A stretch of DNA of 64,000 bases, from the NCBI RefSeq assembly GCF_041659645.1, contig NZ_JBAZXX010000001.1, positions 131,066 to 195,065 of the forward strand. Direction: 5' to 3'. Source of the stretch: Hyphomicrobium sp. (lineage in GTDB: Bacteria; Pseudomonadota; Alphaproteobacteria; Rhizobiales; Hyphomicrobiaceae). Below are positions 30,744 through 50,093 of this stretch, in pieces (positions within the stretch are counted from its first letter, which is position 1; every line of letters begins with the position of its first letter). A program made the position numbers and the translations under genes. Below the pieces are notes generated by a model that was not told the DNA's origin, searched no databases, and worked only from the letters and a program-made list of their open reading frames with translations.

Positions 30744-31181
30744 ATGGTTGGGGGAATGTTGAACTATCACGCTGCCGAAGCGATCATAAGTTCAATGCAC
30801 TTAGCGTGGAGCGACAGTGATCTCTCAAGTCTTCTAGAGAATTTTGCAGACGACATTGTTTATAGGCCCAATTTACGGGATGCGTTTGGGCACACCAGAA
30901 TCTACCGCGGTCGGCGGGAACTCGAACGCCTTTTCCGGTACAAATCTGAAATGCTGACGTCGACAACGACGGTCGAGCAGTTCGCTTACGCGTCGGGGAT
31001 AGCGCGCACCAAGATAGCGTTCATCCAGGGCCATCATCGGACCGGCCTGACTTACGTCGGCACCTATCGGCAAATCGTGATGTTCCGGGGGCTGAAGATC
31101 GCGTTGCTTGAAGAGCTTCACGACGCCGAAAAGCTTCGCGCGTTCTGGAATTTGGTAACGGCTGAGGAAGGCGAACGGTGA
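30744..31181 (+). CDS. SnoaL/NTF2-like protein
   Basis: AW...DL..LL..FADDIVY and GTYRQ..F...KI..L.E.HDA pattern; paralog at 33842. Confidence 0.8.
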   Translation: MVGGMLNYHAAEAIISSMHLAWSDSDLSSLLENFADDIVYRPNLRDAFGHTRIYRGRRELERLFRYKSEMLTSTTTVEQFAYASGIARTKIAFIQGHHRTGLTYVGTYRQIVMFRGLKIALLEELHDAEKLRAFWNLVTAEEGER

Positions 31182-31335
31182 TGTTGGGGGGCAATCGTCC
31201 AGGGGTAACGCTCGCACTCAAAGAACTCGAGCGAACTGTACGATCGCACAGCGACGTGGTTGCATATTGAGCGGCGCTCGAGGGCATCGCCGGGTCGAAT
31301 TACGTTCAGACTTAGTTATCGGCACACAGCGAGAC

Positions 31336-31697
31336 TTAATCTCTAGCCAGACGAGTAGCTATGACGCTGTTCACGACGATCGACACATCATCAGGATTGA
31401 ACGGCTTGGCTAGGATCGGCGTATGCGGATAAAGCGCGCTTATTTGGTCCGCACCAGCGCCGTTGCAGAATGCGAACGGGATACCCTTTTTTTTTGAGTG
31501 TGCGTGCAATCGTTTGAGCGTCGCTATCCTCAAGAACGTAATCCATTAGAGCGACGTCGATCTTTTGGTGATCCAGGACGTCGAGTGCTTTCGGCCGCAG
31601 AAATATCAAGTGACTGCTCCGCGGCTTCGGCCAGTGCGTTGTTCAATGCACGCGAGCGCAAAATTCTATCGTCAAAGCTGTAGCCATCGATTCGCAT
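31336..31697 (-). pseudogene. Single-domain response regulator, frameshifted
   Basis: IDVALMD, GIPFAF and LAKPF motifs in different frames; frame change at an A9 run (31487-31495); degenerate 5' end. Confidence 0.75.
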
Positions 31698-31884
31698 AAA
31701 AATTTCTCAAATGCTCAAAAAAAGACAGTTGAAGAAGATATGCCGTATGCGTCATATTTACTGAAGATTGCTATGCTAATGCGACGAACGACATGTGACA
31801 GAGATTGATATTCCAAAAGCGATTTGAGCTTAGCACGGAAGTTAGAGCTTGCCGACGTGAATGGGTTTCGTAATCGGGTGCATA

Positions 31885-32064
31885 ATGCCAACGACGAATA
31901 GCATCACTCTGCTCAATATCTGCCGGGCAATTGAACAAACACCAGATGAAGGGCTTATGGCGATCGAGCGTGACGCCCTGGTCGCGACACGAAAAGCCTT
32001 GCGAGCCCTCAGGCAAGAAGTGGATCGAGCATTGTTGCGATTGGCAATTTTGGACGAGCAATGA
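31885..32064 (+). CDS. Small helical protein family (copy C)
   Basis: ICRAIEQTP..L...ERDAL...L..LRQEVDRALLRLA; homologous to copy A. Confidence 0.7.
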   Translation: MPTTNSITLLNICRAIEQTPDEGLMAIERDALVATRKALRALRQEVDRALLRLAILDEQ

Positions 32065-32374
32065 CCGAGTCATCGACTTGCGTCCCGCGCCTGCTCATTA
32101 CGGTTTATCGCCATATCTTGCACGGTATTTTTTAGCTGCGGTTTGGAGGGATGGTCTTGCCCTGCGTGAAGGATTTAGGGCACCCCCGCGAGGGCACGTG
32201 GAGTAATGTCTTGGCAATGAGGGAATTGACTGGTCTTGCCGCGCAGGAGATAGGTAGATCTCAAAAGTGCAGTTGAAACCGCACTCCTACAAATTCGCAC
32301 CGAGGAATGATGGTCGACTGAGACATCGCGTAACGTCGCGACTGCTGGCCACTGGTCTCATTTCGCGCTCGCGT

Positions 32375-32863
32375 CTTTGGCAGGCAGGGTGGTGGTAATC
32401 CCGTTCAGCCAAACCACATGCACGTTCGGTCTGAAACAATCGACCGACGACCGACGTTCGACAATGCCTTCGCTCACGGTCGCGTCATTCTCGTCGTCCA
32501 CACGTTCAACGAAGGCGAAGAGTTGCCGAACGGCAAGACGAAGCAATGGGTCATCACGACGGACAGCCGATTGCGATAGACGTGATTTGCGAGGAGTAGC
32601 CGAACGGCCCTGATACACTGGACACGTTCATTCAGGTGACGACGCCAGCCAACGCCCTGATTTCGAAAATTACCGACAGAATGCCGGCCACACTTCAGTC
32701 GGACGATTGGGCGACCTGGCTTGGCGAGGAGCAAGGTTCACTGGCTGACGTAAAGGCGGTGTTTCAGACATTCGAGGATGGCGGTAACTGGACGATGGAG
32801 GAGCAGCCGCGCACGCGAAATGCCAACGCGAAGAAGTATGAAGGGCAACCGGGACTTTTCTAA
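32375..32863 (+). pseudogene. SRAP pseudogene (5'-truncated, frameshift, TAG at 32597)
   Basis: Colinear DNA similarity to 10950-11455, ending QPGLF*. Confidence 0.88.
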
Positions 32864-32942
32864 CACACGATCAATCGGAAACCCAAGGGCACCGCACTGG
32901 CAAAGGAGAGCGATGCCCACTACATTTGAAATGTTGACGAAC

Positions 32943-33260
32943 TCAGATTGCGAAATCTTCCAATTTCGCACCCTTCTTCAACCGAATAACGAGCCACGTC
33001 GGCTTACGACCGCGACCAGTCCATGTCGACGACTTGTCTTCAGGGTTTGCGTATTTCGCAATTCCGACAGGCTTCTTGGCACCTTTCGAAGAGCCAAACA
33101 ATTCCGCCAATGAAAAGCCGGATGTTGCCGCCAAAGCGGCGAGCTTCTTTTTAATTTCAGAACGTTCACGGGACCGCGCTTCGATAATAGCGAATTGAAG
33201 TTTGCCCTCCAGGCTAACAAGTTCCTTGAGGCTCAAACTTTTGACGTTGATGGCGGCCAT
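32943..33260 (-). CDS. hns: H-NS family nucleoid-associated protein
   Basis: KYANP and TWTGRGRKPTW DNA-binding motif; GGAG RBS. Confidence 0.93.
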   Translation of the reverse strand: MAAINVKSLSLKELVSLEGKLQFAIIEARSRERSEIKKKLAALAATSGFSLAELFGSSKGAKKPVGIAKYANPEDKSSTWTGRGRKPTWLVIRLKKGAKLEDFAI

Positions 33261-33425
33261 TCATAGCTCCAATTGATATTCGAATTGCAAGGGGAGGCAC
33301 ACAAACACTGAAATTAATTACGATGTCAACAACCGCACTTGGCAATTTTATATTTGTTGCAGTGCGGCGATATTTTGCCCGATATGTCGATGTAGTTATG
33401 TAGGCGATCGATATTGAGAGTACGA

Positions 33426-33608
33426 ATGACCGCTAAAGCCTCCCTATTCAAAGACTTCTGTCGAGCGTTGGATGACGCGCATGGCGACGTCTTGGCGACT
33501 TCCGACAGGGAATGTCTGCTCTCCCTACACAGAGCATTAACGGGACTAAAAGGCGCCGTTGAAACTGCTCTTCTGCAAATCGGTTCGGATGATCGCCTGG
33601 CTAACTAG
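33426..33608 (+). CDS. Small helical protein family (copy D)
   Basis: FCRALD...L...DRECLLSL...L..LK..VE.AL. Confidence 0.7.
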   Translation: MTAKASLFKDFCRALDDAHGDVLATSDRECLLSLHRALTGLKGAVETALLQIGSDDRLAN

Positions 33609-33638
33609 CGTCGAGAGATTGTTCGAAGAGCATCACTC

Positions 33639-33823
33639 ATGCCGTTAGACCCAACACGCATTATTTCCATTATCCGCGAACTTGAACAGACTTCGCCGGA
33701 AGCGTTGCAGAAAATGGACCGCGAGCTTTTGCTGTCGATTAGACAGACGCTTCGAGAGCACCAGCGGGAAGTCGAAATATGCTTTTGCGACGGGCGTTCG
33801 TGGACGAGCAGCAATTGAATTAG
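33639..33823 (+). pseudogene. Small helical protein family (copy B), 1-nt deletion
   Basis: Close to copy A (shared ATGGACCGCGAGCTTTTGCTGTCGATTAGACA); one base missing near 33777 relative to A. Confidence 0.8.
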
Positions 33824-33841
33824 CCGAGCTTGACCTTCGAG

Positions 33842-34324
33842 ATGAGCAACGCTGGACACTACCCCTTAGGACAGCGAAAACTCAATTTGGACACCCGCAA
33901 AAAAGCCATCGTCGAGGCTGGTCACGCAGCGTGGAACAATCGAAACCTAGATGGCATGTTCGATTACTATCCCGAAGAGCTTGTCTACACAAGTAATGCT
34001 GGAGGCCCTAATGGCGAGCCGCTGACGGCTGTCGGCAAGGCCGGATTACGCGCAATGCTGGCGCCGGTTTTGCCCGTATTGGAGAGCGCCACGTCTGTTG
34101 AGCATTTCTAATTCGAATATGATGTTGCACGAGCTCGTGTGGCGACGTGCGCTGTGCATAAAGCGACGGGGCTCCAGCTTATCGGCAGTTACAGGCAAAT
34201 CATGCACTTCGAAGGTTTCAAGATTTGTCGGCTGCAAGAATTTCACGATGCTGCGATGCTTAACGCTTTTTGGCAGATGGTGGCGGCCGGAACCTCCCGA
34301 CCGGTACCCTGGATTAGCGAGTAA
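33842..34324 (+). pseudogene. SnoaL/NTF2-like protein with in-frame TAA at 34109-34111
   Basis: Same frame continues after the stop (FEYDVARARV...GSYRQ...EFHDA...AFW), matching 30744. Confidence 0.8.
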
Positions 34325-34359
34325 TCTAAGACCGCCGTCGTCTTCCAATTCGTGCCGAA

Positions 34360-34950
34360 CTACACCGGTTTTTTGATCGGGTGGCGTTGCTGCCCCTGTG
34401 TCTCGCGGCGGCCGATCTCCTGCTTGAGATCCGCCAAATCAATGAATTGGTCAGCCTGCCGGCGGAGTTCATCGGCGACCATTGGGGGCTGGGTTTGAAG
34501 GGTCGAGACCACGCTCACGCGCTTGCCCATCGTTTGAAGCGCCGAGACAAGACTGCGAAAGTCGCCATCTCCTGAAAATATAACCAAATGATCCACATTG
34601 TTGGCAAGCCGCATGGCGTCGACCGCCAGCTCCATATCCATGTTGCCCTTGAACTTGCGACGACCAGAGGCATCTAGGAATTCCTTCACGGGTTTTGTGA
34701 CCATCGTGAAGCCGTTGTAATCCAGCCAGTCGACGAGCGGGCGGACCGATGAAAATTCCTGATCGTCAGCCAAGGCCGTGTAGTAGCTCGCTCGAATCAA
34801 CCGCGTTTTTTCACGGAAGAAATGCAGCAATCGCTTGTAGTCGATATCGATCCCGAGAGATTTAGAGGTTGCATAAAGGTTGGCGCCGTCAATGAAAAGC
34901 GCCAGGCGTTCGTTCGGATGAAAGTCCCACAATACAGCCGTTTTGGTCAT
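34360..34950 (-). CDS. NYN-domain (LabA/DUF88) protein
   Basis: FIDGANLY, KGNMDMELAVD, SGDGDF and LRRQADQF motifs. Confidence 0.93.
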   Translation of the reverse strand: MTKTAVLWDFHPNERLALFIDGANLYATSKSLGIDIDYKRLLHFFREKTRLIRASYYTALADDQEFSSVRPLVDWLDYNGFTMVTKPVKEFLDASGRRKFKGNMDMELAVDAMRLANNVDHLVIFSGDGDFRSLVSALQTMGKRVSVVSTLQTQPPMVADELRRQADQFIDLADLKQEIGRRETQGQQRHPIKKPV

Positions 34951-35366
34951 GTCTCGCCTTAAAAAGCTCGAAAAAAGTCGTCGTTGCAAGCGCCGGCCGC
35001 GAAGCAATTCGTTCAGAACGGATAAAAGAAATCCGCCGCGGTCGATTGGCCGATACCGAACCAATGACCGGTCGTTGGTGAGTATCAGAGGGCGACCCGG
35101 GCGTCGTCTCTCGGAATATTGCGCATTCTGTCGGGCTTCCGCGGGCCGGGGGCCTCGCAGGCTCGCGCGAGACTTCGGCTCCGCCGCCGCGATGTGGATC
35201 ATTTGCTCCGGGCTGCGCGTTACGCTGAAGGCAACCGGCACGTCATTGCATCCATGGTCGCAAGCGCAGCCCATGGACCGTGTGACGTAGAGGATTTGAG
35301 GATTGATACCTATAGGCCGAGATTGAAGCGGAGTTTAGCTATTCACAACACATCATCAAAATCGGC

Positions 35367-35789
35367 GTGTCCTTTGTACCCCGTTTTCGCGTGTTCACTC
35401 CCGACGGCGATCACGCAGCGTTCGTGCAATTGAAACCGGGCATCGAGGATCGGCTTCGGCAACTCGATGTTTTGCGAAAATTCATGATCTACAAGGCTGC
35501 GGCCGGCTTCGTCATGGTCACCGAGCTTGGGTCGCCAGCCAGCATATTCGTCGTCGCCGTCACGCGCGCCCGGACGCTTGGCGCAATCCGGGGTATCCGG
35601 CGCAAACCTGTTCGCTTCGGAAAGATTGAATGGCTCCCGGCTGAACTAATTGACGATTCCATCGCAGCCTTGCTGCCGCCGAAGATCGTCGCGGTTTCCA
35701 AAGACGACCTCGCTTTTATGAAAGAGGTCGACGAGACAGGCTCGATTGAGGGGATCAAGTGGCAGCGACTGACAAAGTCTCTGCGCTAG
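35367..35789 (+). CDS. Hypothetical protein
   Basis: Globular-looking ORF divergent from the NYN gene. Confidence 0.55.
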   Translation: MSFVPRFRVFTPDGDHAAFVQLKPGIEDRLRQLDVLRKFMIYKAAAGFVMVTELGSPASIFVVAVTRARTLGAIRGIRRKPVRFGKIEWLPAELIDDSIAALLPPKIVAVSKDDLAFMKEVDETGSIEGIKWQRLTKSLR

Positions 35790-35899
35790 CATTTCTGACT
35801 CACGTTCATCGCAAATTTTGGGAATATTGCATTCCCGCAACTATGTCCTCCGTCTGTGCTCCTGTAGGCGTTTGCAATTGAATATTCGGGGTACCCCAA

Positions 35900-37198
35900 G
35901 TGATCGATGCGATCAGTGAAATTCCGAAGATTCTAAAAAAATTCCGCAAGCGCGTTCGAACGAAAGCGCGCGAGCTTTACGCAAAATCCAAACGTTACTG
36001 GACCGCCGCGACCGTCGTAGTGGTCACAGGAAGCAGCGGGAAAACCACGACTGTTGCTTTGTTGAAGCATATTCTTTCCGGCGAAGCGCAAGTCCTGTCG
36101 CAGGCATTGAGCAATGGCTACACGCAGGCCGTCAGAGCGCTGTCGGCGCTGGAGCCAAGCGATCGGTACGCTGTGATTGAGCAGGGCACCGAAGCACCGG
36201 GTCAACTGGCGCGCGCGGCTAATCTTCTGAGGCCCGACGTGGCCATCGTCACCCTTGTCGCCATGGAGCATTACGCGTCGTTTCGCTCGATCGATGCCGT
36301 AGCGAAAGAAAAAGCGGCCTTCGTTGAGAAGTTGCCTAACGACGGACTGGCGATTCTGAATTTCGACGATCCGAGGACGCGAGCGATGTCAGGATTAACT
36401 CGCGCGCGCTCAGTGTCCTTTGGGACCACTGGCGGCGAGTACAAGGTCACCAACATATCCGAATGCTCAGACGCCTATTTATCGTTCACGCTGACGAGCG
36501 CCGATCTCAGCTTGCCGGTGCGAACGAAGCTTCTTGGAAAATACAATTGGCTATCTGTCGCCGCGGCCGCCACCTGTGCACTGGAACTTGGCGTCTCTCC
36601 GCAAAACATTGCCGCTCGAATCGCATCGTTTGCCCCGATCCGCGGACGTATGAGCATGCATAGGCTCGATGGCGGGATCAGGATGATCCTCGATACGGCA
36701 AAGGCGCCCTTCCATAGCATTTATCTTCCCTTGGAAACTTTGAGTACGATTAGGGCATCCAGGAAGCGATTTGTTATGGGACAAATCAGCGACTACTCGG
36801 GCAACGCAACGAGGAAGTACAAGGACACTTACGCTGCGGCTGCCCAGGTAGCTGACGAGGTTTGCTTCGTGGGCCCATGGAGTCACAAGGCGCGTGCGCC
36901 AGCCGAGGACGTCGAAAGCGGAAAATTTCGAGCCTTCTCGACTGTGCAAGCTTTGTCCTCTTACCTAAGGGAAACGGCAGTGGACGGCGAGGTCGTTGTC
37001 GTGAAGTCGTCTCGGAATCTGCACCTTGAACGCTTACTGCTCGACAGGACCGAAGGCGTTCGCTGTTGGGCGAATGAATGCGGAAGCAAGCTTTCATGCT
37101 CGACTTGCGGCCTCTACGGGACTGCATTCTACGAACACAACGGTCGAAACGAACATCGCGGGCGTGTCGCTCAACCACGATCCGAAGTTATTGATTGA
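35900..37198 (+). CDS. MurF-like Mur ligase lacking the N-terminal domain, with Cys-rich tail
   Basis: TGSSGKTTT P-loop, EQG, LNFDD, GRM and KSSR motifs; C-terminal CX4CX5CX2C. Confidence 0.85.
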   Translation: MIDAISEIPKILKKFRKRVRTKARELYAKSKRYWTAATVVVVTGSSGKTTTVALLKHILSGEAQVLSQALSNGYTQAVRALSALEPSDRYAVIEQGTEAPGQLARAANLLRPDVAIVTLVAMEHYASFRSIDAVAKEKAAFVEKLPNDGLAILNFDDPRTRAMSGLTRARSVSFGTTGGEYKVTNISECSDAYLSFTLTSADLSLPVRTKLLGKYNWLSVAAAATCALELGVSPQNIAARIASFAPIRGRMSMHRLDGGIRMILDTAKAPFHSIYLPLETLSTIRASRKRFVMGQISDYSGNATRKYKDTYAAAAQVADEVCFVGPWSHKARAPAEDVESGKFRAFSTVQALSSYLRETAVDGEVVVVKSSRNLHLERLLLDRTEGVRCWANECGSKLSCSTCGLYGTAFYEHNGRNEHRGRVAQPRSEVID

Positions 37199-37371
37199 AG
37201 GCCCATTAAATGGAGTCGCGATCCGCATCGCATTTAGACAACCCACGTCGGCGAACGCAAGTACGTCATTGCACGGAGTAACGGCTTTAGATTGTTTGCC
37301 CATCAATGCCGAGACGGGCGGTTCCAATCGGGAAAACCAATAGTGTGACCGCATCCAATCGGGGGTTGCAA

Positions 37372-37953
37372 ATGACGATAGCGGAACCTCGTTACGCGCA
37401 AAGCATTGCGATAAGAACCCCTGAATATTCAGATCTTAGCGCAATTTTCCGTTGTTTGCGATTTTACAATGTGCACGTTTTGTGGGGCGACAAGCAACGC
37501 GTGGATGTCGACTTCGACGGCGAACATATTCTGACGGTCCGCAATACGATTTCCCACATCGACCTGACCGATAAATGCTGGGTCGCTGACGATGGGAACG
37601 AGATTTTGGGTTTCTGCTGTTGGGACTGGCGCGACAGATCAAAGCTGTCGGCGAAAACTATTCTGATATCAGTAACCGACACCGGTCGAACGCGAGGAGT
37701 GGGTAAACTATTGCAACAGCGGCGGCAGGATCAAATGCGAGAGCATGGCGCGAGAGACGTTCACACATGGAGCGACGACCCTCGCGCGGTTAAATGGTAT
37801 CAAAGGACATTTGGCTATGAAATCGTCGGACAAGAGCCCATTCGGCACTCTCTGCACCGGTTTCATTTTGACGGCCAGGGCGACGTCTGGGCCGTTCATC
37901 GCGGCTTTGAGGACCAAGACACGCTGACCCATCTACGCCTTGTATTCACATAG
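37372..37953 (+). CDS. GNAT family acetyltransferase
   Basis: RTRGVGKLL acetyl-CoA motif and WYQRTFGY. Confidence 0.8.
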   Translation: MTIAEPRYAQSIAIRTPEYSDLSAIFRCLRFYNVHVLWGDKQRVDVDFDGEHILTVRNTISHIDLTDKCWVADDGNEILGFCCWDWRDRSKLSAKTILISVTDTGRTRGVGKLLQQRRQDQMREHGARDVHTWSDDPRAVKWYQRTFGYEIVGQEPIRHSLHRFHFDGQGDVWAVHRGFEDQDTLTHLRLVFT

Positions 37954-37960
37954 GTAGCCA

Positions 37961-38848
37961 ATGTTTCGGCGGCTTGGCGATTGGCTCAATCGAATCTACT
38001 TGGTCCGAGAGCGGTATCGCAGGAAGTTTGGACGCTATCCGAGACTCTTTCGGCCGGCATCGTTCGGCGAGAAAATGCAGTGGCGCAAACTATTCGATAC
38101 CAACGAGCTCTTCACCCTATTCTCAGACAAGTTTCAAGTCCGGTCCTTCATCGAGGAGCGCGGGTTTGGTGCCCACTTAGTTCCCGTATTGTGGCTCGGC
38201 GACGATCTTGAAAAACTGGATTTAACGACGATGGGTCTGCCTTTTGTAATTAAAAGCACCCACGGCTGGAAGCAGACCATTATCGTCGACCAACCGGGCT
38301 ATGATGCCGACGCGATCAAGACCGAGATAAGCGGCTGGTTGCGACACTGTCACGGCTCTCTCAGCATCGAGCCCGGCTATCTCAAGGTTCCTCGTCGGAT
38401 CATTGTTGAAAGACTTTTGACCGTCGAAGATGGCCGGCCGCCGATTGAGTATAAGCTTTTCGTCTTCGACGGTGTTGTGCGGGTGATTAATAGTATCGTC
38501 ACAGAGAAGGACCGAAAGTCTCGCTCCTCCTTCCATCGCAAGAATTGGGAGCGGTTGCCATGGTTGGGTCGTCGAACTCCGCTTCAGGATGATCCTCCGC
38601 CGCCTCGAGATCTGCAAGCTATGATTGACCTCGCGGAGGGACTTGGCCGCGATTTAGATCATGTGCGGGTTGATCTGTATGCCTGTCGTGGAGAGATATT
38701 TGTTGGAGAGATAACGATCTATTCTTGGGGCGGTTGGAATAATTTGAAACCCGAGACGGCCGACGTTGAACTGGGCTCCTACTGGACAGTCAAATCGCCA
38801 GCGGCACGAGCGTGGCGAGCGATTGCTTTTTCGACTTGGGGTTGCTGA
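37961..38848 (+). CDS. TupA-like ATP-grasp protein
   Basis: FGEKMQW, DKFQVR, FVIKSTHG, RIIVE, EYKLFVFDG and VRVDLY...GEIT motifs. Confidence 0.92.
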   Translation: MFRRLGDWLNRIYLVRERYRRKFGRYPRLFRPASFGEKMQWRKLFDTNELFTLFSDKFQVRSFIEERGFGAHLVPVLWLGDDLEKLDLTTMGLPFVIKSTHGWKQTIIVDQPGYDADAIKTEISGWLRHCHGSLSIEPGYLKVPRRIIVERLLTVEDGRPPIEYKLFVFDGVVRVINSIVTEKDRKSRSSFHRKNWERLPWLGRRTPLQDDPPPPRDLQAMIDLAEGLGRDLDHVRVDLYACRGEIFVGEITIYSWGGWNNLKPETADVELGSYWTVKSPAARAWRAIAFSTWGC

Positions 38849-38869
38849 GTTATGTTCGAAGAGACTGAT

Positions 38870-39175
38870 CCGCTGCCTGGTGTCGGCTTCGAGCTATTGT
38901 GACCCTGGCGGCGGCTTGGCAGTCTTGGGAAAACGGCTTTGTCGAGAGCTTCAACTCACGGCTCAGATCATCGAGAGCTGGCGCCGACATTACAATGCCG
39001 TGCGACCACACACCTCGCTCGGCCAATAAGTCGCCGGCCCCGGAAGTCTTGTTCCCGTACTGGGCTGCTTGGGCTCAATAGCGGGCCGCGCCCGCTCCAT
39101 CGTCCATGCCGTCTCTAGGGAAGGGACGCGCCATAAATTAACATTGGACTTGGGCCACTCGGTGGGAGCCTATCA
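38870..39175 (+). mobile_element. IS3-family remnant (orfB 3' part plus right end)
   Basis: SWENGFVESFNSRL and ESWRRHYNAVRPHTSLG; terminus ...GGCCACTCGGTGGGAGCCTATCA. Confidence 0.85.
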
Positions 39176-39311
39176 GCGACGGCCCACACTTCCTTTTTAA
39201 ATCGCCGTTAGGCTCAAAGCTGCAATTCGCTTGCTCTTGGCGGGCGAACGGAGATTGTAGTTTTCGAAAGGTGATATTAATAGCGCGGCCGCGATCGACT
39301 GGATTAATTTA

Positions 39312-39965
39312 TCACACTTTTTTCGCCGCCATCAGGGCCTCTGCCAAGTGTAAATCGCCTTCGGTGGTGATTTTAATGTTGGTCGGACTTCCGTTGACGA
39401 ACTTTGTGTGTACTCCGCCGCGCTTCAGAATATCGAGAAGGCTGGGATCGGAGCTTCCCTTGGATGGGGGAGTGCAGGCATATCCAGCAAGAACAGCATC
39501 ACGGGAAAAAATAACGGGCTTTTGCCCAATCAGGACGTCCCCCGGAGCATGAAGTAAAACGCCGGCCTGATCATACAGAAATTCGGAATTGGCTAAGCCG
39601 GGAGCAGCGGCGCCGCTCCTCCGTGCCTCACCAATCAACCGTTCGACAAGATCGAGGCTCGCAAATGGGTGTACCACATCATGAAGCAGCAACCACGGTG
39701 CTGTGGCCTCGGCGATTAGCCGACGGGTAGTTTCACTCCTGCTGGAGGCACCGCAGATAATCGTGACGCCTTCGCCACCGACAAGATCCGTCGCCCTTTT
39801 GATGTCGGATGTCGGCACAGCGACGATCGTGGACTTCGAGATCTTCTTCGCTAGACGTACCGCATGTTCCAAAAGTGTGCGGTCACCCAGACGCACAAAG
39901 GCCTTCGGACCTCGCCCCAGACGCACACCGCTTCCTGCGGCTTGAACGAGGACCTGAACGTCCAT
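39312..39965 (-). CDS. IspD/TarI-like cytidylyltransferase
   Basis: AAGSGVRLG.GPKAF, LLHDVVHP and NIKITTEGDL motifs; start overlaps upstream stop (TAATG). Confidence 0.88.
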   Translation of the reverse strand: MDVQVLVQAAGSGVRLGRGPKAFVRLGDRTLLEHAVRLAKKISKSTIVAVPTSDIKRATDLVGGEGVTIICGASSRSETTRRLIAEATAPWLLLHDVVHPFASLDLVERLIGEARRSGAAAPGLANSEFLYDQAGVLLHAPGDVLIGQKPVIFSRDAVLAGYACTPPSKGSSDPSLLDILKRGGVHTKFVNGSPTNIKITTEGDLHLAEALMAAKKV

Positions 39966-41368
39966 TATCTGTAAGCGGCCGCGGCTGCCGTCGTTCCCCA
40001 AATCCGACGAGTTATGTCGTCGCGGCGCGAACGGGAAGTTTCTCTCGTCGGCAAATGCGGTTTCATCTCAGCCGATCCGAAGAAGCTATCGTATCCGTGC
40101 CGGTTAATTCGGTCGCACGTTTTGAGATCGAGAACTGCCAACGCTTCATCGGGATTTCTGCGCGCAATTACATAAGCATTCTTAGCCGCGACATGATCCT
40201 TCAGCGCCCCACGCAGGTTAGTGAATGTATCCTGCAATGCATTGTTGCTCTGCCACATGTGCCGAATGGTATCGTAATGCGGATGCGGCTTCTGCTGTAG
40301 TTCCTGTAGGCGGAGCCTACCGTCATCAGTCAGTTCGAAATGATTCAGCAGGTTGCTGTGGTTACCCGGATCGAGTTTGTAGGCATAGAGTTCGAGACCG
40401 CGCGAGCTGACCAATAGAGCGTGTGACCGATCTATGGCAGCAAAACACTTTCGCACGTCGAGTTCCGCCGAATCGGGTTGGTTTGCGGTGAAGTTCTGCG
40501 AAAAGGCGACATATCGCATTTGCGTGCCCGTCAGGCTCTTCCCGGCGGGATACCGCGTTTCGATTCCAGAAAGACCAAGAAGGTCGAGGCAGGTTGGCGC
40601 AAGATCGACGGTGCTCGCCAGCCTGTTGTCGGCGCCAATTGGCACGTCCGAATCGCAGATCACTAGTGGCGCATGCACCAAAGGGGTAAATGGTTCCAGG
40701 CCATGCAGCAAGCCGTTCTTGAAACCATGTGTCCAGTGATCGTCGCCATGATCGCCATAGACGATGATAGTTGTTTCTTCTAGGAGACCCCGGCGGCGAA
40801 GGATGTCGAGCACCATACCCAGAAGAGTGTCGGTGACAGCGCACGCGCCACCTATAAGGTCCTCAAGGCACGAGGCATACGGCGCGAGCGCAAGGTCGGT
40901 TGCGATATGGGGCACGAGATTCCACATATAGATGGCGAATGGTGTCCCCTCTACGCGCTGATCGAATTGCGCCAGGAGATCACTAAAATCGTTTGTGCTC
41001 CAGACGGGAGGCACGCTGGCAGAAAGCAGCGGAAGCATCGCCTTGGAAATTGCGCTAGCGCACAAGAAGGAGGTTTTGTATCCCGTCTCCGCCAACGCGA
41101 GAAACAGGCTCTTCGTGTCGCCCGCAGGGCGCGAAACACCCGATGCAGCGTCGAGTTCGCCATCGTTGCCGTGCATAAAGGCCGAAATGGCCATCTGCGT
41201 CGAGGTCGCCGACGAGAAATACGATCGGTAGACGCGGGATGTTTCCATCAGACGGTGCAAGTGCGGAAACGCTTCAGGAAAGGCTGACAGCCTCTGCCAA
41301 GCAACACTTTCGAGATGAAAGACCAGAAGGTTTTTCCGCCGTGTGGCGGATGGGCGAAGGGACATCAT
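39965..41368 (-). CDS. Alkaline-phosphatase-superfamily (sulfatase/LtaS-like) protein
   Basis: VFHLES, SSATSTQMA (Thr where sulfatases have Cys), GDHG, HAPL and TVDLAPT motifs. Confidence 0.8.
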   Translation of the reverse strand: MMSLRPSATRRKNLLVFHLESVAWQRLSAFPEAFPHLHRLMETSRVYRSYFSSATSTQMAISAFMHGNDGELDAASGVSRPAGDTKSLFLALAETGYKTSFLCASAISKAMLPLLSASVPPVWSTNDFSDLLAQFDQRVEGTPFAIYMWNLVPHIATDLALAPYASCLEDLIGGACAVTDTLLGMVLDILRRRGLLEETTIIVYGDHGDDHWTHGFKNGLLHGLEPFTPLVHAPLVICDSDVPIGADNRLASTVDLAPTCLDLLGLSGIETRYPAGKSLTGTQMRYVAFSQNFTANQPDSAELDVRKCFAAIDRSHALLVSSRGLELYAYKLDPGNHSNLLNHFELTDDGRLRLQELQQKPHPHYDTIRHMWQSNNALQDTFTNLRGALKDHVAAKNAYVIARRNPDEALAVLDLKTCDRINRHGYDSFFGSAEMKPHLPTRETSRSRRDDITRRIWGTTAAAAAYR

Positions 41369-42258
41369 GAACTTCGGTGCCTCCGGTCGGCAAATATCGC
41401 GTTGAAATCGAAGCCGAGGAGTTCCGGAATCTCTGGCTCCGATTTTTTCGCTGGTTCCACTGGCTTTTGCAGTCTGGCTGGCTTTCGCCAGCCAAAAAAT
41501 GACCGCCCACGTGACGGAATCGGGTTCTCAAAGGCTCCAATTCCCTCAGCCAGATCGATATATCCTCTGCCCATCGAGATTCTTTTGAGCTTTAGTCCTG
41601 CTTCGTCGATGAGATGGCGGTATCCTACGGCCTGGTCGCGGCTGTCGGGATCGACCATGGAAAATTTCTCGAAGCGCGCAACCCGATCCTGCCGTTCAAT
41701 CATCCGCAAATGATAAAGATTGGCGCGCATGTTAGCGCGGGACTCGTGTTGCAATTCCTGCGGAAACCAAGGTTGATGCATCCCCGGGCTGCGCAGCGTG
41801 ATCGTGGGGGGCAAACGGAACATGCGGGCACTCCAGCGCGGCTGACACAGCCCGTCGGCGCGATAATGATTCCGCGAATTCCAGAGATTGACTAGTTGCA
41901 AAAGACGAACAGGCTCGCCGCGCTCATCGCCCATGCGAGCCTCGACCCGCAATCGTCGCAGAAACCTTTCCTCGAACCTCTCATCGGCATCGGCGCACAG
42001 AATCCAATCTGCTCCCAGTCGCGCTGCCTCGGTCAAGAGGCGATGGCGATTTGAGACTTCATGGGCATGGGCCGGGCTCAACCGGTGCTCGCGCAGCACC
42101 GATATAACTTTGGGCTCCGAGCGAAGGATGTCCGCTGTGGCGTCACTCGAACAGTCGTCCAGCGCGATTATAGCATTCACATACGGCGCAAGATGAAACA
42201 GAAAGCCCGGCAGATAGCGCTCTTCGTTCCGGACGGAGATCACACCAAAGATGTTCAT
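41365..42258 (-). CDS. Glycosyltransferase family 2
   Basis: VRNEERYL, DDCSSD and WILCADADE motifs; ATGA overlap with the next gene. Confidence 0.88.
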   Translation of the reverse strand: MNIFGVISVRNEERYLPGFLFHLAPYVNAIIALDDCSSDATADILRSEPKVISVLREHRLSPAHAHEVSNRHRLLTEAARLGADWILCADADERFEERFLRRLRVEARMGDERGEPVRLLQLVNLWNSRNHYRADGLCQPRWSARMFRLPPTITLRSPGMHQPWFPQELQHESRANMRANLYHLRMIERQDRVARFEKFSMVDPDSRDQAVGYRHLIDEAGLKLKRISMGRGYIDLAEGIGAFENPIPSRGRSFFGWRKPARLQKPVEPAKKSEPEIPELLGFDFNAIFADRRHRSS

Positions 42259-47589: not shown

Positions 47590-48765
47590 TTATTTTCGCC
47601 GAACGTTTTCGAAGAGGTCGATAATTTTCTTGGTCCCAGAGGGTTGAGAAAAACGGTCCATAAAGGCGTCGTATCCATTAGCAGAAATTCGCTGCCAAAC
47701 GTTGTTGTCGTAATAGGCGTCCATGATTAGGTTAGAAATTTGATCCGGAGTGTCGGCGACGAGCACATCACTCCCATGCGTTAAGCCCATCCCTTCCGCC
47801 GCAATTGAGGTCGCAATGACCGGAACACCATAGCTAAGGCTACTGACAATCTTTCCCTTAACACCTCCGCCGTAGCGCAACGGCGCGACGGTTAGCCGAC
47901 TTGCAGCAAACAGCGGTGCTAAATCTCGCACGTATCCTTTCGCGATAATCCGTTCAGAGTTTAATTGCGTGATGCTATTTGGCATGTGAGAGCCAGCTAT
48001 AATGAAGCGGTCTTGAAAGCCGTGCCTGAGAAGCTTGGGCCATATCTCACCAACAAACCACTCTACGGCATCAATGTTTGGTGAATGGAGAAATCCTCCT
48101 ATAAACAGCAGATCTCGCCTGATCGGATCGGGCGCCAAGGCTCGCCTGTAGAGCCGACAAATTTTTCGCAATCCAATCCGGTTTTCGTATTGACGGTTCC
48201 AAGGTATATGAGGCGTTTCTCGCAGAATTGGGATGTGATGAACATTAGCTCCCGGCACGAGTTGATGTACTAACTCTTCCTCTGATGCACTCACAACGAT
48301 TGCCGCGTCTGCTCTCTGCATCAAATCTAGTTCTGCTACCCGCGTTTGCGTGGCTGCTTTCGCCAGGTCTTGATTACCGGTCAGTTCCGCTTGTCGTTGC
48401 ATGCGAAGAAAATGAAGGTCAACCGCGTGGAAAATGATTTTCGCATTTGGCGCGGCTCGCCTCGCTTTGTCGAACAACGGCGCTGCCGTCGGAGCCCTGT
48501 ACAGCAATATAATATCTGACTTAGGTCCGATCTTGCGGAAAACCCGGTCCATCGACTTCCATAGTGGTGCAGATAAGGTCCGGATCCCGAGTTTCCTGAG
48601 CGCCTGCGTGTACGGGGATCGTGCTTTCAAATCGTTGGGAGCGAAAGTTATTTTATATCCTGCTCGGGATAATATTTGCAGATAAGAGAAGGTGCTCGCT
48701 GACCCACTATCTAAATCGGGAGTCGGCGTGCTGTGGTCCACGACAAGAACGCGCCCTCGTTTCAT
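47590..48765 (-). CDS. Glycosyltransferase family 4-like
   Basis: PTPDLDSGS, FIGGFLHSPNIDAV and PLRYGGGVKGK motifs. Confidence 0.9.
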   Translation of the reverse strand: MKRGRVLVVDHSTPTPDLDSGSASTFSYLQILSRAGYKITFAPNDLKARSPYTQALRKLGIRTLSAPLWKSMDRVFRKIGPKSDIILLYRAPTAAPLFDKARRAAPNAKIIFHAVDLHFLRMQRQAELTGNQDLAKAATQTRVAELDLMQRADAAIVVSASEEELVHQLVPGANVHHIPILRETPHIPWNRQYENRIGLRKICRLYRRALAPDPIRRDLLFIGGFLHSPNIDAVEWFVGEIWPKLLRHGFQDRFIIAGSHMPNSITQLNSERIIAKGYVRDLAPLFAASRLTVAPLRYGGGVKGKIVSSLSYGVPVIATSIAAEGMGLTHGSDVLVADTPDQISNLIMDAYYDNNVWQRISANGYDAFMDRFSQPSGTKKIIDLFENVRRK

Positions 48766-50093
48766 TCAAATCGATCAATTCTAAAGGTCGGCACAAATGC
48801 CTTGATACGACTTTGCAATTGAGAAATTGCCTTTGCGACGACCACCAAATCCCAATCTTCAGACAAAGAAATTTCGCTAAGAAGCCGATGAGCGAGATCT
48901 GCCGGAAGCTGACTTTTGACCGTAGAAAGATCGACTCCATGGTCGCAGATAAAATCTGGATCGTAGATGTGGAGGTTATAGCCTCGATCCAACAGCTCGT
49001 TTGCGAGCTTCACGAGCGGGCTGTTTCGCACGTCGTCCGTGGCGGGTTTAAAACTCAAACCTACGAGTAGTACGCGAGAGCCCGGCTTCACTCTCGCTTC
49101 AATCTCCTCGATCAGAAAGAACAGGTGCGAGTCATTGCTGCGCAGGATGCTGCTCATAAGAGGAGCGGAAACTCCTGTCGCTTCCATGCGTAAGGCTAGC
49201 GCGCGCACGTCCTTCGGAAGACAAGGGCCTCCGAACGCCATCCCGGGGCGAAGGTATGCAGCAGAAATATTCAACTTTTGGTCGGCAAGAAAGATGTCGA
49301 AAATTTGGCTTGGCGTCGCCTTTGCACGAACGGCGAAACGCGCAATTTCGTTGGCGAAAGCAACCTTTAGAGCGTGAAAACTGTTGTCCGCGAACTTCGC
49401 AAGCTCGGCCACCTCGAAGCTGGTCAGGAATTTTTCGACGTCAAAGTTTTCGAACAGACGAAGTAAGAGCTTTCCGCATCCCGGCCGACGTTCGCCGATT
49501 ACGATGCGAGATGCATCGTAGTGATCTGCCACTGCGCTACCCTCGCGACTGAATTCTGGCAGATAAGCGACGTCATACCGACCACCTGGAGCTTCGTCCG
49601 CTGATGAAATCAAAGCCGGCATCACGACATCGCTCATGGACCCCGGGAGCATCGTGCTCCTTACAACCAATAAAAGCGGTTCAAGATCACCACGTCGCAA
49701 ATGAATTGTTTCACCTAACGCTCTGACCGCTGTAACTACCTCTGATAAGTCTAGGTCCCCATGCTGCAGCCCGCGCGTACCGACGCAGAGGAATACCAAA
49801 TCGGAATTGACTATTTCGCCAGTTTCATTTGTGACGGAAAACCGACCGTCAGCATGGCCCTGGCCGATGAGAGCGTCGACGTGCGGTTCTCGAAAAGACG
49901 GTTTGCCGACGCCCGCATTGACCAGAATTCGGTCGTCGCATTCAACTCCGATGACATGGTGACCGTCGCGAAGCATCGCAGCAGCAGTTACTGTGCCAAC
50001 GTGCCCGAGGCCTATGACCGCAATTTTCAGTTTCGAATTGCCGTGAAGCAGTTCGCTGGCCTCAAGATATTTTTGTGGTTGGTGAAGGTTCAA
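48762..50093 (-). CDS. UDP-glucose/GDP-mannose dehydrogenase family protein
   Basis: GLGHVG, RSTMLPG, PEFSREG, FGGPCLPKD and DVRNSP motifs. Confidence 0.95.
   Translation of the reverse strand: MNLHQPQKYLEASELLHGNSKLKIAVIGLGHVGTVTAAAMLRDGHHVIGVECDDRILVNAGVGKPSFREPHVDALIGQGHADGRFSVTNETGEIVNSDLVFLCVGTRGLQHGDLDLSEVVTAVRALGETIHLRRGDLEPLLLVVRSTMLPGSMSDVVMPALISSADEAPGGRYDVAYLPEFSREGSAVADHYDASRIVIGERRPGCGKLLLRLFENFDVEKFLTSFEVAELAKFADNSFHALKVAFANEIARFAVRAKATPSQIFDIFLADQKLNISAAYLRPGMAFGGPCLPKDVRALALRMEATGVSAPLMSSILRSNDSHLFFLIEEIEARVKPGSRVLLVGLSFKPATDDVRNSPLVKLANELLDRGYNLHIYDPDFICDHGVDLSTVKSQLPADLAHRLLSEISLSEDWDLVVVAKAISQLQSRIKAFVPTFRIDRFE

Follow-up and report, generated by a model that had tools for sequence, protein, structure and literature searches.

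Three co-oriented genes at the edge of a polysaccharide locus of Hyphomicrobium sp. encode a Mur-family ligase, a GNAT-family acetyltransferase and a TupA-like ATP-grasp enzyme. They lie within a 64,000-nucleotide stretch of that genome (hereafter the window; NCBI RefSeq assembly GCF_041659645.1, contig NZ_JBAZXX010000001.1, positions 131,066 to 195,065 of the forward strand), and positions below are those of the window unless a contig or locus is named. Judged by its sequence, the ligase belongs to an undescribed clade that is derived from MurF and carries a four-cysteine, putatively zinc-binding tail. We give roughly even chances to a reading in which all three genes, each of them intact, belong to a modular toolkit, inherited patchily, for coupling amine or amino-acid substituents to the carboxylates of surface glycans. 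The links between the ligase and the GNAT protein, and between the GNAT protein and TupA, are real, and the three-gene arrangement is a local assembly.

Three genes at the edge of a polysaccharide locus

A first-pass annotation, made from the window without database searches, had recognized the three genes and their shared orientation. Open reading frames and Pfam matches confirmed them, with the start of the GNAT gene moved to position 37372:

35900..37198, + strand: MurF-derived Mur-family ligase, 432 amino acids (aa), from Pfam, NCBIfam, a family alignment and an AlphaFold2 model
37372..37953, + strand: GNAT acetyltransferase, 193 aa, start set by alignment with homologs
37961..38848, + strand: stand-alone TupA-like ATP-grasp amidoligase, 295 aa (PF14305)

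The reading frame that holds the GNAT gene is open from 37306 (37306-37953, + strand), but alignment with 29 homologs places the start at the ATG at 37372, which has GGGGG 6 nucleotides (nt) upstream. The ligase and GNAT genes are separated by 173 nt and the GNAT and TupA genes by 7 nt. A promoter scan returned no promoter-like sites in 34000-39600, and no terminators were detected within the trio (three terminator-like sites were found elsewhere, a count below the shuffle mean).

The ligase matches the middle and C-terminal domains of the Mur ligases (Mur_ligase_M, PF08245, 101 bits; Mur_ligase_C, PF02875, 37 bits; both above the cut-off), and Pfam detects no N-terminal Mur ligase domain in it, in agreement with the first-pass annotation. 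Its best NCBIfam model is murF (TIGR01143), at 190 bits against a cut-off of 288.6 and with a match that starts at model position 63; on sequence, too, it is MurF that matches the ligase best (profile E = 1e-54). The P-loop (TGSSGKTT) and the catalytic and metal residues are intact, and an alignment of 26 family members leaves T43, G44, S45, K48, E94, H124, K138, N154 and D156 invariant. Where the MurF of the same genome reads IDESYNANP (the DxYNANP motif), the ligase reads ILDTAKAP, a substitution already noted in the first pass, and D265 of DTAKAP is likewise invariant; where that MurF reads VLGDMLELG, the ligase reads VMGQISDYSG.

The cysteine tail that the first pass had pointed out is present as C389-WANE-C394-GSKLS-C400-ST-C403 (C-x4-C-x5-C-x2-C). 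Since its four cysteines, together with W390, are invariant in 26 of 26 family members, the tail is not a product of chance. It probably binds zinc. An AlphaFold2 model of the ligase (predicted local distance difference test score, pLDDT, of 91.8) folds the tail with a pLDDT of 77-92 and places a single long basic helix (residues 2-34) in the position of the N-terminal domain. The best matches of the model in the PDB are MurF structures, with a template modelling (TM) score of 0.75.

The possibility that this protein is the only MurF of its genome was dispelled by a canonical murF (358 bits, above the cut-off) in a murE-murF-murD-murC (dcw) cluster at 256-265 kb of the same contig (C1). The window ligase, at 167 kb of C1, lies some 90 kb from that cluster and is 26% identical to the canonical protein; it is therefore an extra paralog. 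It departs from MurF in score, in the N-terminal domain, in the DxYNANP and GDMxELG motifs and in its location outside the dcw cluster, and its two domains, P-loop and catalytic residues place it within the Mur ligase superfamily.

A search of 5.8 billion proteins returned about 60 clusters of similar proteins, roughly 420-460 aa in length, from Hyphomicrobium, Mesorhizobium, Aquibium, Rhodobacteraceae and uncultured Alphaproteobacteria. Scores separate the family clearly from canonical MurF, its members reaching about 300 bits or more (with two outliers at 160-180) and MurF 124 at most. The family is sporadic, being found in 3 of 81 genomes of the taxonomic family and 13 of 401 of the order, and never in the dcw cluster. 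A literature search found nothing relevant on a MurF-like paralog or on a Mur ligase linked to a pyruvyl transferase or to a family 25 glycosyltransferase (GT25).

The GNAT protein belongs to the acetyltransferases by its match to Acetyltransf_1 (PF00583; 33.8 bits, cut-off 20.7). An alignment of its closer family shows an invariant GFCCWxW motif and conserved HTWSDDP, HxLH and HRG motifs, and the family is rare (one of the 401 genomes of the order). The folds nearest to its AlphaFold2 model (pLDDT 86) are amino-acid and N-alpha acetyltransferases (Ard1, RimI and phosphinothricin acetyltransferase; E of about 1e-7).

The TupA protein matches PF14305 over profile positions 1-239 of 241 (74.4 bits, cut-off 25), which places it in that family. 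Of the 22 positions conserved at 90% or more in 120 homologs it has lost none; these include K98, E137, E150, R236, D238 and E250. The first pass had tied such ATP-grasp enzymes to the amino-acid modification of surface polymers, and the literature offers a precedent: in a capsule pathway, the TupA-like domain at the C-terminus of Cj1438 has been proven to act as a glucuronate amidoligase that forms its amide at the C6-carboxylate (PMC11800379). For TupA enzymes of the WemR type, attachment of amino acids to surface polysaccharides has been predicted (PMC13419641).

The following genes of the neighboring polysaccharide locus bear on the substrate of TupA and on the setting of the trio:

48762..50093, - strand: nucleotide-sugar 6-dehydrogenase (TIGR03026, 305 bits, above the cut-off)
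47590..48765, - strand: GT4 glycosyltransferase (Glyco_trans_1_4, 69.8 bits; GumK_N, 20.6 bits, below the cut-off)
39312..42258, - strand: operon of a GT2 glycosyltransferase, an alkaline-phosphatase-superfamily protein and an IspD-like cytidylyltransferase (Pfam), convergent with the trio

The best equivalogs of the dehydrogenase are UDP-glucose 6-dehydrogenases, making it the putative source of a uronic acid whose carboxylate TupA would amidate. The start of the GT4 gene overlaps the stop of the dehydrogenase gene by 4 nt, and its product is weakly similar to the N-terminal domain of GumK, a glucuronosyltransferase. The GT2/phosphatase/IspD operon forms the edge of the polysaccharide locus and abuts the trio.

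Recurrent neighbors of the ligase and the acetyltransferase

Beyond the window we examined 44 loci of the ligase family, each with as much as 10 kb of flanking sequence (40 loci after de-duplication), and clustered the neighboring proteins de novo. The dominant partner is a protein family, designated c2, that is present in 15 of the 40 loci and is adjacent to the ligase gene (less than 100 nt) or overlaps it in 10. A pyruvyl-transferase-like gene is found in 12 of the 40, GT25 in 10 and a formyltransferase in 5 of the ligase loci, and every locus with GT25 or a pyruvyl-transferase-like gene also has c2. Proteins of the c2 family are about 400 aa long and contain an SGGxDS PP-loop and four invariant cysteines (C280, C290, C293 and C296) with QueC-like spacing (C-x9-C-x2-C-x2-C). 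They match no Pfam or NCBIfam model above the cut-off, and in Pfam, NCBIfam and the PDB they resemble QueC, LarE, GMP synthase and NAD synthetase only weakly. We regard c2 as an undescribed family; neither the zinc-tail Mur ligase nor the rare GNAT has a commoner neighbor. Examples are L039:8697-9905, L155:6209-7345 and L152:9383-10597, with 12 others.

The composition of these cassettes varies around a common set of genes. On a plasmid of Gemmobacter aquarius HYN0069, genes for a formyltransferase, c2, GT25, a pyruvyl transferase and the Mur ligase are co-directional and are followed by further glycosyltransferases. Locus L140 has a divergent pyruvyl transferase followed by a co-directional row of GT25, c2, GNAT and the Mur ligase. 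In H. methylovorum two Mur ligase genes precede GT2, a pyruvyl-transferase-like gene on the opposite strand and then c2, and in H. facile (G471) the Mur ligase is followed by GT2 and a convergent pyruvyl transferase. The H. facile cassette lies about 11 kb from the same GT2/phosphotransferase/IspD operon that is found in the window (76% nucleotide match). Up to four zinc-tail ligase paralogs occur within 11 kb in L022 (an uncultured alphaproteobacterium) and L021 (G440:C3), alongside genes for an AMP-binding enzyme, an asparagine synthase and a phosphopantetheine-binding-domain protein; this arrangement suggests stepwise peptide assembly.

The source genome has its own c2 gene, in a second glycan-tailoring cassette at 440-444.6 kb of contig C2 (L152 6372-10597). 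The order there is GT25 (opposite strand), polysaccharide pyruvyl transferase, an alanine-racemase-like gene and c2 (443289-444593). With 79 bits against the alr model (cut-off 168), the racemase is divergent; a housekeeping alr is present on contig C4, and no alanine racemase was found in the other 44 ligase loci. An autotransporter gene and a choloylglycine-hydrolase-family gene lie upstream of the cassette. The genome holds exactly one copy each of the zinc-tail ligase, c2, this GNAT family and TupA. Because the recurrent partners are on another contig, they were out of sight in the first pass; its view that the ligase decorates a glycan is partly supported, insofar as the family recurs beside GT25, GT2 and pyruvyl transferase genes, with the correction that the recurrent partner is c2 rather than TupA.

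A metagenome scan for the GNAT family returned nothing with a single-sequence query and gave matches with an alignment query. The GNAT gene adjoins c2 in 6 of the 11 metagenome loci, the ligase gene in L140 as well as in the window, and tupA on L138, L150 and a 4206-bp contig (P0116 and P0236), where the two genes overlap. Contig L138 comes from a near-identical strain and repeats the GNAT-tupA part of the window. Equal size and source suggest further pairs of ligase and GNAT on a 1639-bp contig, a 6469-bp contig and a 3.93-Mb contig of a metagenome-assembled genome; the ligase fragment on the 1639-bp contig is C-terminal, which fits the gene order of the window. The GNAT gene is thus the one that links the others, occurring beside c2, the Mur ligase or TupA.

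The trio itself, taken as a module in the first pass, did not recur outside the source strain and the near-identical strain of L138. A profile hidden Markov model built from 120 TupA homologs found no TupA within 10 kb in any of the 44 other ligase loci, the GNAT family is present in one of them (L140), and no ligase of this family was found in about 30 TupA loci, most of which have flanks of only about 1.5 kb. What does recur is each of the two pairs that share the GNAT gene. At the level of whole genomes, ligase and TupA are found together in 5 of the 401 genomes of the order, where 0.7 would be expected (13 and 21 genomes, respectively; Fisher p = 2e-4), and among 149 genera the ligase is found in 5, TupA in 15 and both in 3 (p = 0.007). 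The ligase and c2 are each found in 13 of the 401 genomes, and together in 4. These counts are only suggestive, since related genomes are not independent. A ligase and a TupA match 5 kb apart in a Mesorhizobium genome (G275) were dismissed as coincidence: housekeeping genes lie between them, the TupA match is borderline (25 bits) and contains one in-frame stop, and the arrangement is absent from other Mesorhizobium loci.

Two further features lie immediately upstream of the trio:

34360-35274, - strand: NYN-domain (LabA-like) gene, divergent from the Mur ligase gene
35367-35789, + strand: 140-aa open reading frame directly upstream of the Mur ligase gene, with no family match

The NYN gene matches the PADLOC NYN model (60 bits) and is multi-copy, with at least four further copies in the source genome and copies in 20 of 20 genomes of the genus searched (70-79% nucleotide identity); a copy with 67% identity is found directly upstream of the ligase homolog in L029. 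The 140-aa frame, which has a homolog in none of the 43 ligase loci searched, may not be a gene. The 3.2 kb from a GT4 gene to the NYN gene (31181-34360) contain no open reading frame of 130 aa or more, and parts of that region (about 32.4-32.8 kb and 33.6-33.8 kb) are repeated with 79% identity at about 11.0-12.1 kb of the window, which fits a decaying duplicated block. The sole tRNA of the window is tRNA-Ser(CGA) at 2500-2589, and G+C content across the window ranges from 47% to 61%, as fits an accessory region. In two related genomes (loci L094 and L096) the ligase gene lies at one edge of a variable spot that has HisKA_2/ArsC genes on one side and a DUF1285 gene on the other, and it is followed by a gene for a small HXXEE membrane protein; the cargo of the spot is not the same in both, one genome having a reverse transcriptase and the second DUF6088/AbiEii, a WD40 protein and a transposase.

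A proposed role in glycan decoration and its alternatives

If the genes do serve to decorate a surface glycan, TupA would most likely amidate a uronic acid at C6 after converting the carboxylate there to an acyl phosphate. The sole precedent for such ATP-dependent amidation is Cj1438C (PMC11800379). The uronic acid would come from the dehydrogenase of the locus and would be installed by the GT4 enzyme whose gene overlaps it. The GNAT protein, whose gene is translationally close to tupA, would probably transfer an acyl group to the nitrogen of an amine-bearing substituent, such as the second amino group in a diamino acid; in other organisms its gene adjoins those of three different carboxylate-activating enzymes (c2, the Mur ligase and TupA). 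For the ligase, the most likely activity would be the joining of an amino acid to a carboxylate borne by a sugar whose carrier is not UDP but, for example, a lipid or a polymer. In Mur ligases the C-terminal domain binds the incoming amino acid, and here that could be a D-amino acid, given the divergent alanine racemase in the partner cassette. The normal partners of the ligase are c2, GT25, a polysaccharide pyruvyl transferase and either a formyltransferase or GNAT, and in the source genome they are placed on contig C2. In the toolkit, carboxylate-activating enzymes of three kinds (ATP-grasp, Mur-type and PP-loop) would work with an N-acyltransferase. The identity of the genes, the conservation of their residues, the neighborhood counts and the independence from the dcw cluster are established here, and all of the substrates and the glycan target itself are inferred; the product named in the first pass, an acylated amino acid or peptide on the O-polysaccharide, is purely conjectural.

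A number of observations weigh against this reading. The absence of TupA from the other 44 ligase loci, with GNAT in one, implies that the fixed trio is specific to the source lineage, and 173 nt separate the ligase gene from the GNAT gene. The genome-level co-occurrence of ligase and TupA could stem from common ancestry, or from genomes that are rich in glycan genes in general. The closest homologs of the ligase (72% and 69% identity, in L094 and L096) stand alone in a variable spot, 25 of the 40 ligase loci are without any of these glycan partners, and the Mesorhizobium ligase is found among housekeeping genes (G6PD, DAO and an SH3 protein). Some ligase loci pair instead with AMP-binding, carrier-protein and AsnB genes, which could point to a small-molecule product. 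Finally, CfmP, a member of the TupA family, is reported to act on a fimbrial protein and not on a polysaccharide (PMC13419641).

Several of these points would be expected if the Mur ligase, the GNAT-TupA pair and the polysaccharide operons were independent accessory genes that had come to share one variable region: the missing TupA and nearly missing GNAT at other ligase loci, the intergenic gap, the solitary closest homologs, and the multi-copy NYN gene and decaying gene block found upstream of the ligase. However, the GNAT family, despite its rarity, adjoins the ligase in two gene orders (the window and L140), probably on the 1639-bp contig as well, and adjoins TupA on three further contigs, one of them from the near-identical strain. 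An adjacency that persists through rearrangement is hard to attribute to chance, and the H. facile ligase is also found near the same IspD operon. We consider chance assembly unlikely for these reasons.

It is less probable still that the product is a small peptide-like metabolite or polymer rather than a glycan decoration, in which case one to four Mur-type ligases in tandem would act together with enzymes of the AMP-binding, carrier-protein and AsnB kinds. Locus L022 does combine four paralogs with AsnB and an AMP-binding enzyme, L021 and L018 combine one or more ligases with a PP-binding protein and an AMP-binding enzyme, L020 adjoins a 2061-aa protein that clusters with AMP-binding enzymes, and PGA_cap (CapA-like) genes are present in two loci. 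Such contexts are nevertheless a minority, the commonest partners (c2 with GT25, pyruvyl transferase or GT2) being glycan enzymes, and the window copy of the ligase lies at a polysaccharide locus.

We find it very improbable that the ligase acts in peptidoglycan metabolism, as an auxiliary MurF- or Mpl-like enzyme repairing or remodelling stem peptides on substrates without UDP, for instance lipid II or recycled peptides. MurF is its nearest relative in sequence and fold, a divergent alanine racemase stands in the partner cassette, cell-wall-type SH3 proteins are encoded near the Mesorhizobium ligase, and MurT is an established case of a Mur-like enzyme that lacks the N-terminal domain and acts on lipid II; yet the ligase family is sporadic and never part of the dcw cluster, its C-terminal-domain motifs are replaced, and it repeatedly shares an operon with GT25, pyruvyl transferase or GT2. 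A defense role, considered since the closest homologs lie near a reverse transcriptase, AbiEii and transposases and since an NYN gene adjoins the trio, was rejected, as none of the three proteins matched a PADLOC defense model and the NYN gene is simply multi-copy in the genus.

The coupling of amine or amino-acid substituents to glycan carboxylates, which we favor, could also take a more elaborate form, one that we put forward as speculative and rather doubtful. In it, zinc-tail ligases, pyruvyl transferase, c2, racemase and a GNAT or formyltransferase would together build a peptidoglycan-like peptide stem on a glycan other than peptidoglycan. The pyruvyl transferase would install a carboxylate handle, as MurA and MurB install that of muramic acid; amino acids, possibly of the D form, would be attached by one to four Mur-type ligases, with amidation of a carboxylate by the PP-loop enzyme and capping of a free amine by the acyltransferase. 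In the source genome such a pathway would be split over two loci and joined to a TupA-type uronate amidoligase.

Structural chemistry shows amino-acid and peptide substituents to be common on bacterial surface glycans, but almost no enzymes that attach them are known beyond one characterized TupA-like domain. The locus described here points to an undescribed clade of Mur ligases outside peptidoglycan synthesis that has lost the UDP-binding domain and carries a four-cysteine tail, and that travels with an equally uncharacterized PP-loop ATPase and a rare GNAT. Were this so, Mur ligase chemistry would extend to other glycans, and genes now mislabelled as MurF could be better annotated. Since the cassette forms a single operon on a plasmid of a cultured strain, Gemmobacter aquarius HYN0069, the question is directly testable.

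Comparison with known systems

With MurF (TIGR01143; PDB 4qf5, 4cvk and 1gg4) the window ligase has in common the middle and C-terminal domains, the P-loop and residues E94, H124, K138, N154 and D156. It differs in having no N-terminal domain, in the replacement of DxYNANP by DTAKAP and of GDMxELG by GQISDYxG, and in the additional four-cysteine tail.

The nearest mechanistic analogy is to MurT-GatD, the lipid II isoglutaminyl synthase, and a fold match to it was found. MurT has the Mur-ligase fold without the UDP-binding N-terminal domain, a four-cysteine zinc site and a substrate that is not UDP-linked. The two proteins nevertheless differ: MurT has its zinc ribbon within the central domain, has DUF1727 as C-terminal domain and requires the glutaminase GatD, whereas the window ligase ends in Mur_ligase_C followed by the cysteine tail, scores 24 bits against the MurT model (cut-off 800) and so falls outside that family, and showed no GatD-like partner in its vicinity. 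The pseudomurein ligases pMurC, pMurD and pMurE offer a precedent for Mur-family enzymes used outside bacterial peptidoglycan and are weak matches (PDB 6vr8 and 6vr7; 55-72 bits against cut-offs of 560-600); these proteins are archaeal, keep the N-terminal domain and have no cysteine tail.

The window TupA belongs to the same Pfam family as the C-terminal domain of Cj1438 (Campylobacter jejuni HS:2) and the predicted WemR of Proteus mirabilis, and like them it is encoded in a surface-polysaccharide locus together with a nucleotide-sugar dehydrogenase. Unlike Cj1438, it is a stand-alone protein of 295 aa, free of any fusion to a GT2 domain, and is paired with a GNAT acetyltransferase.

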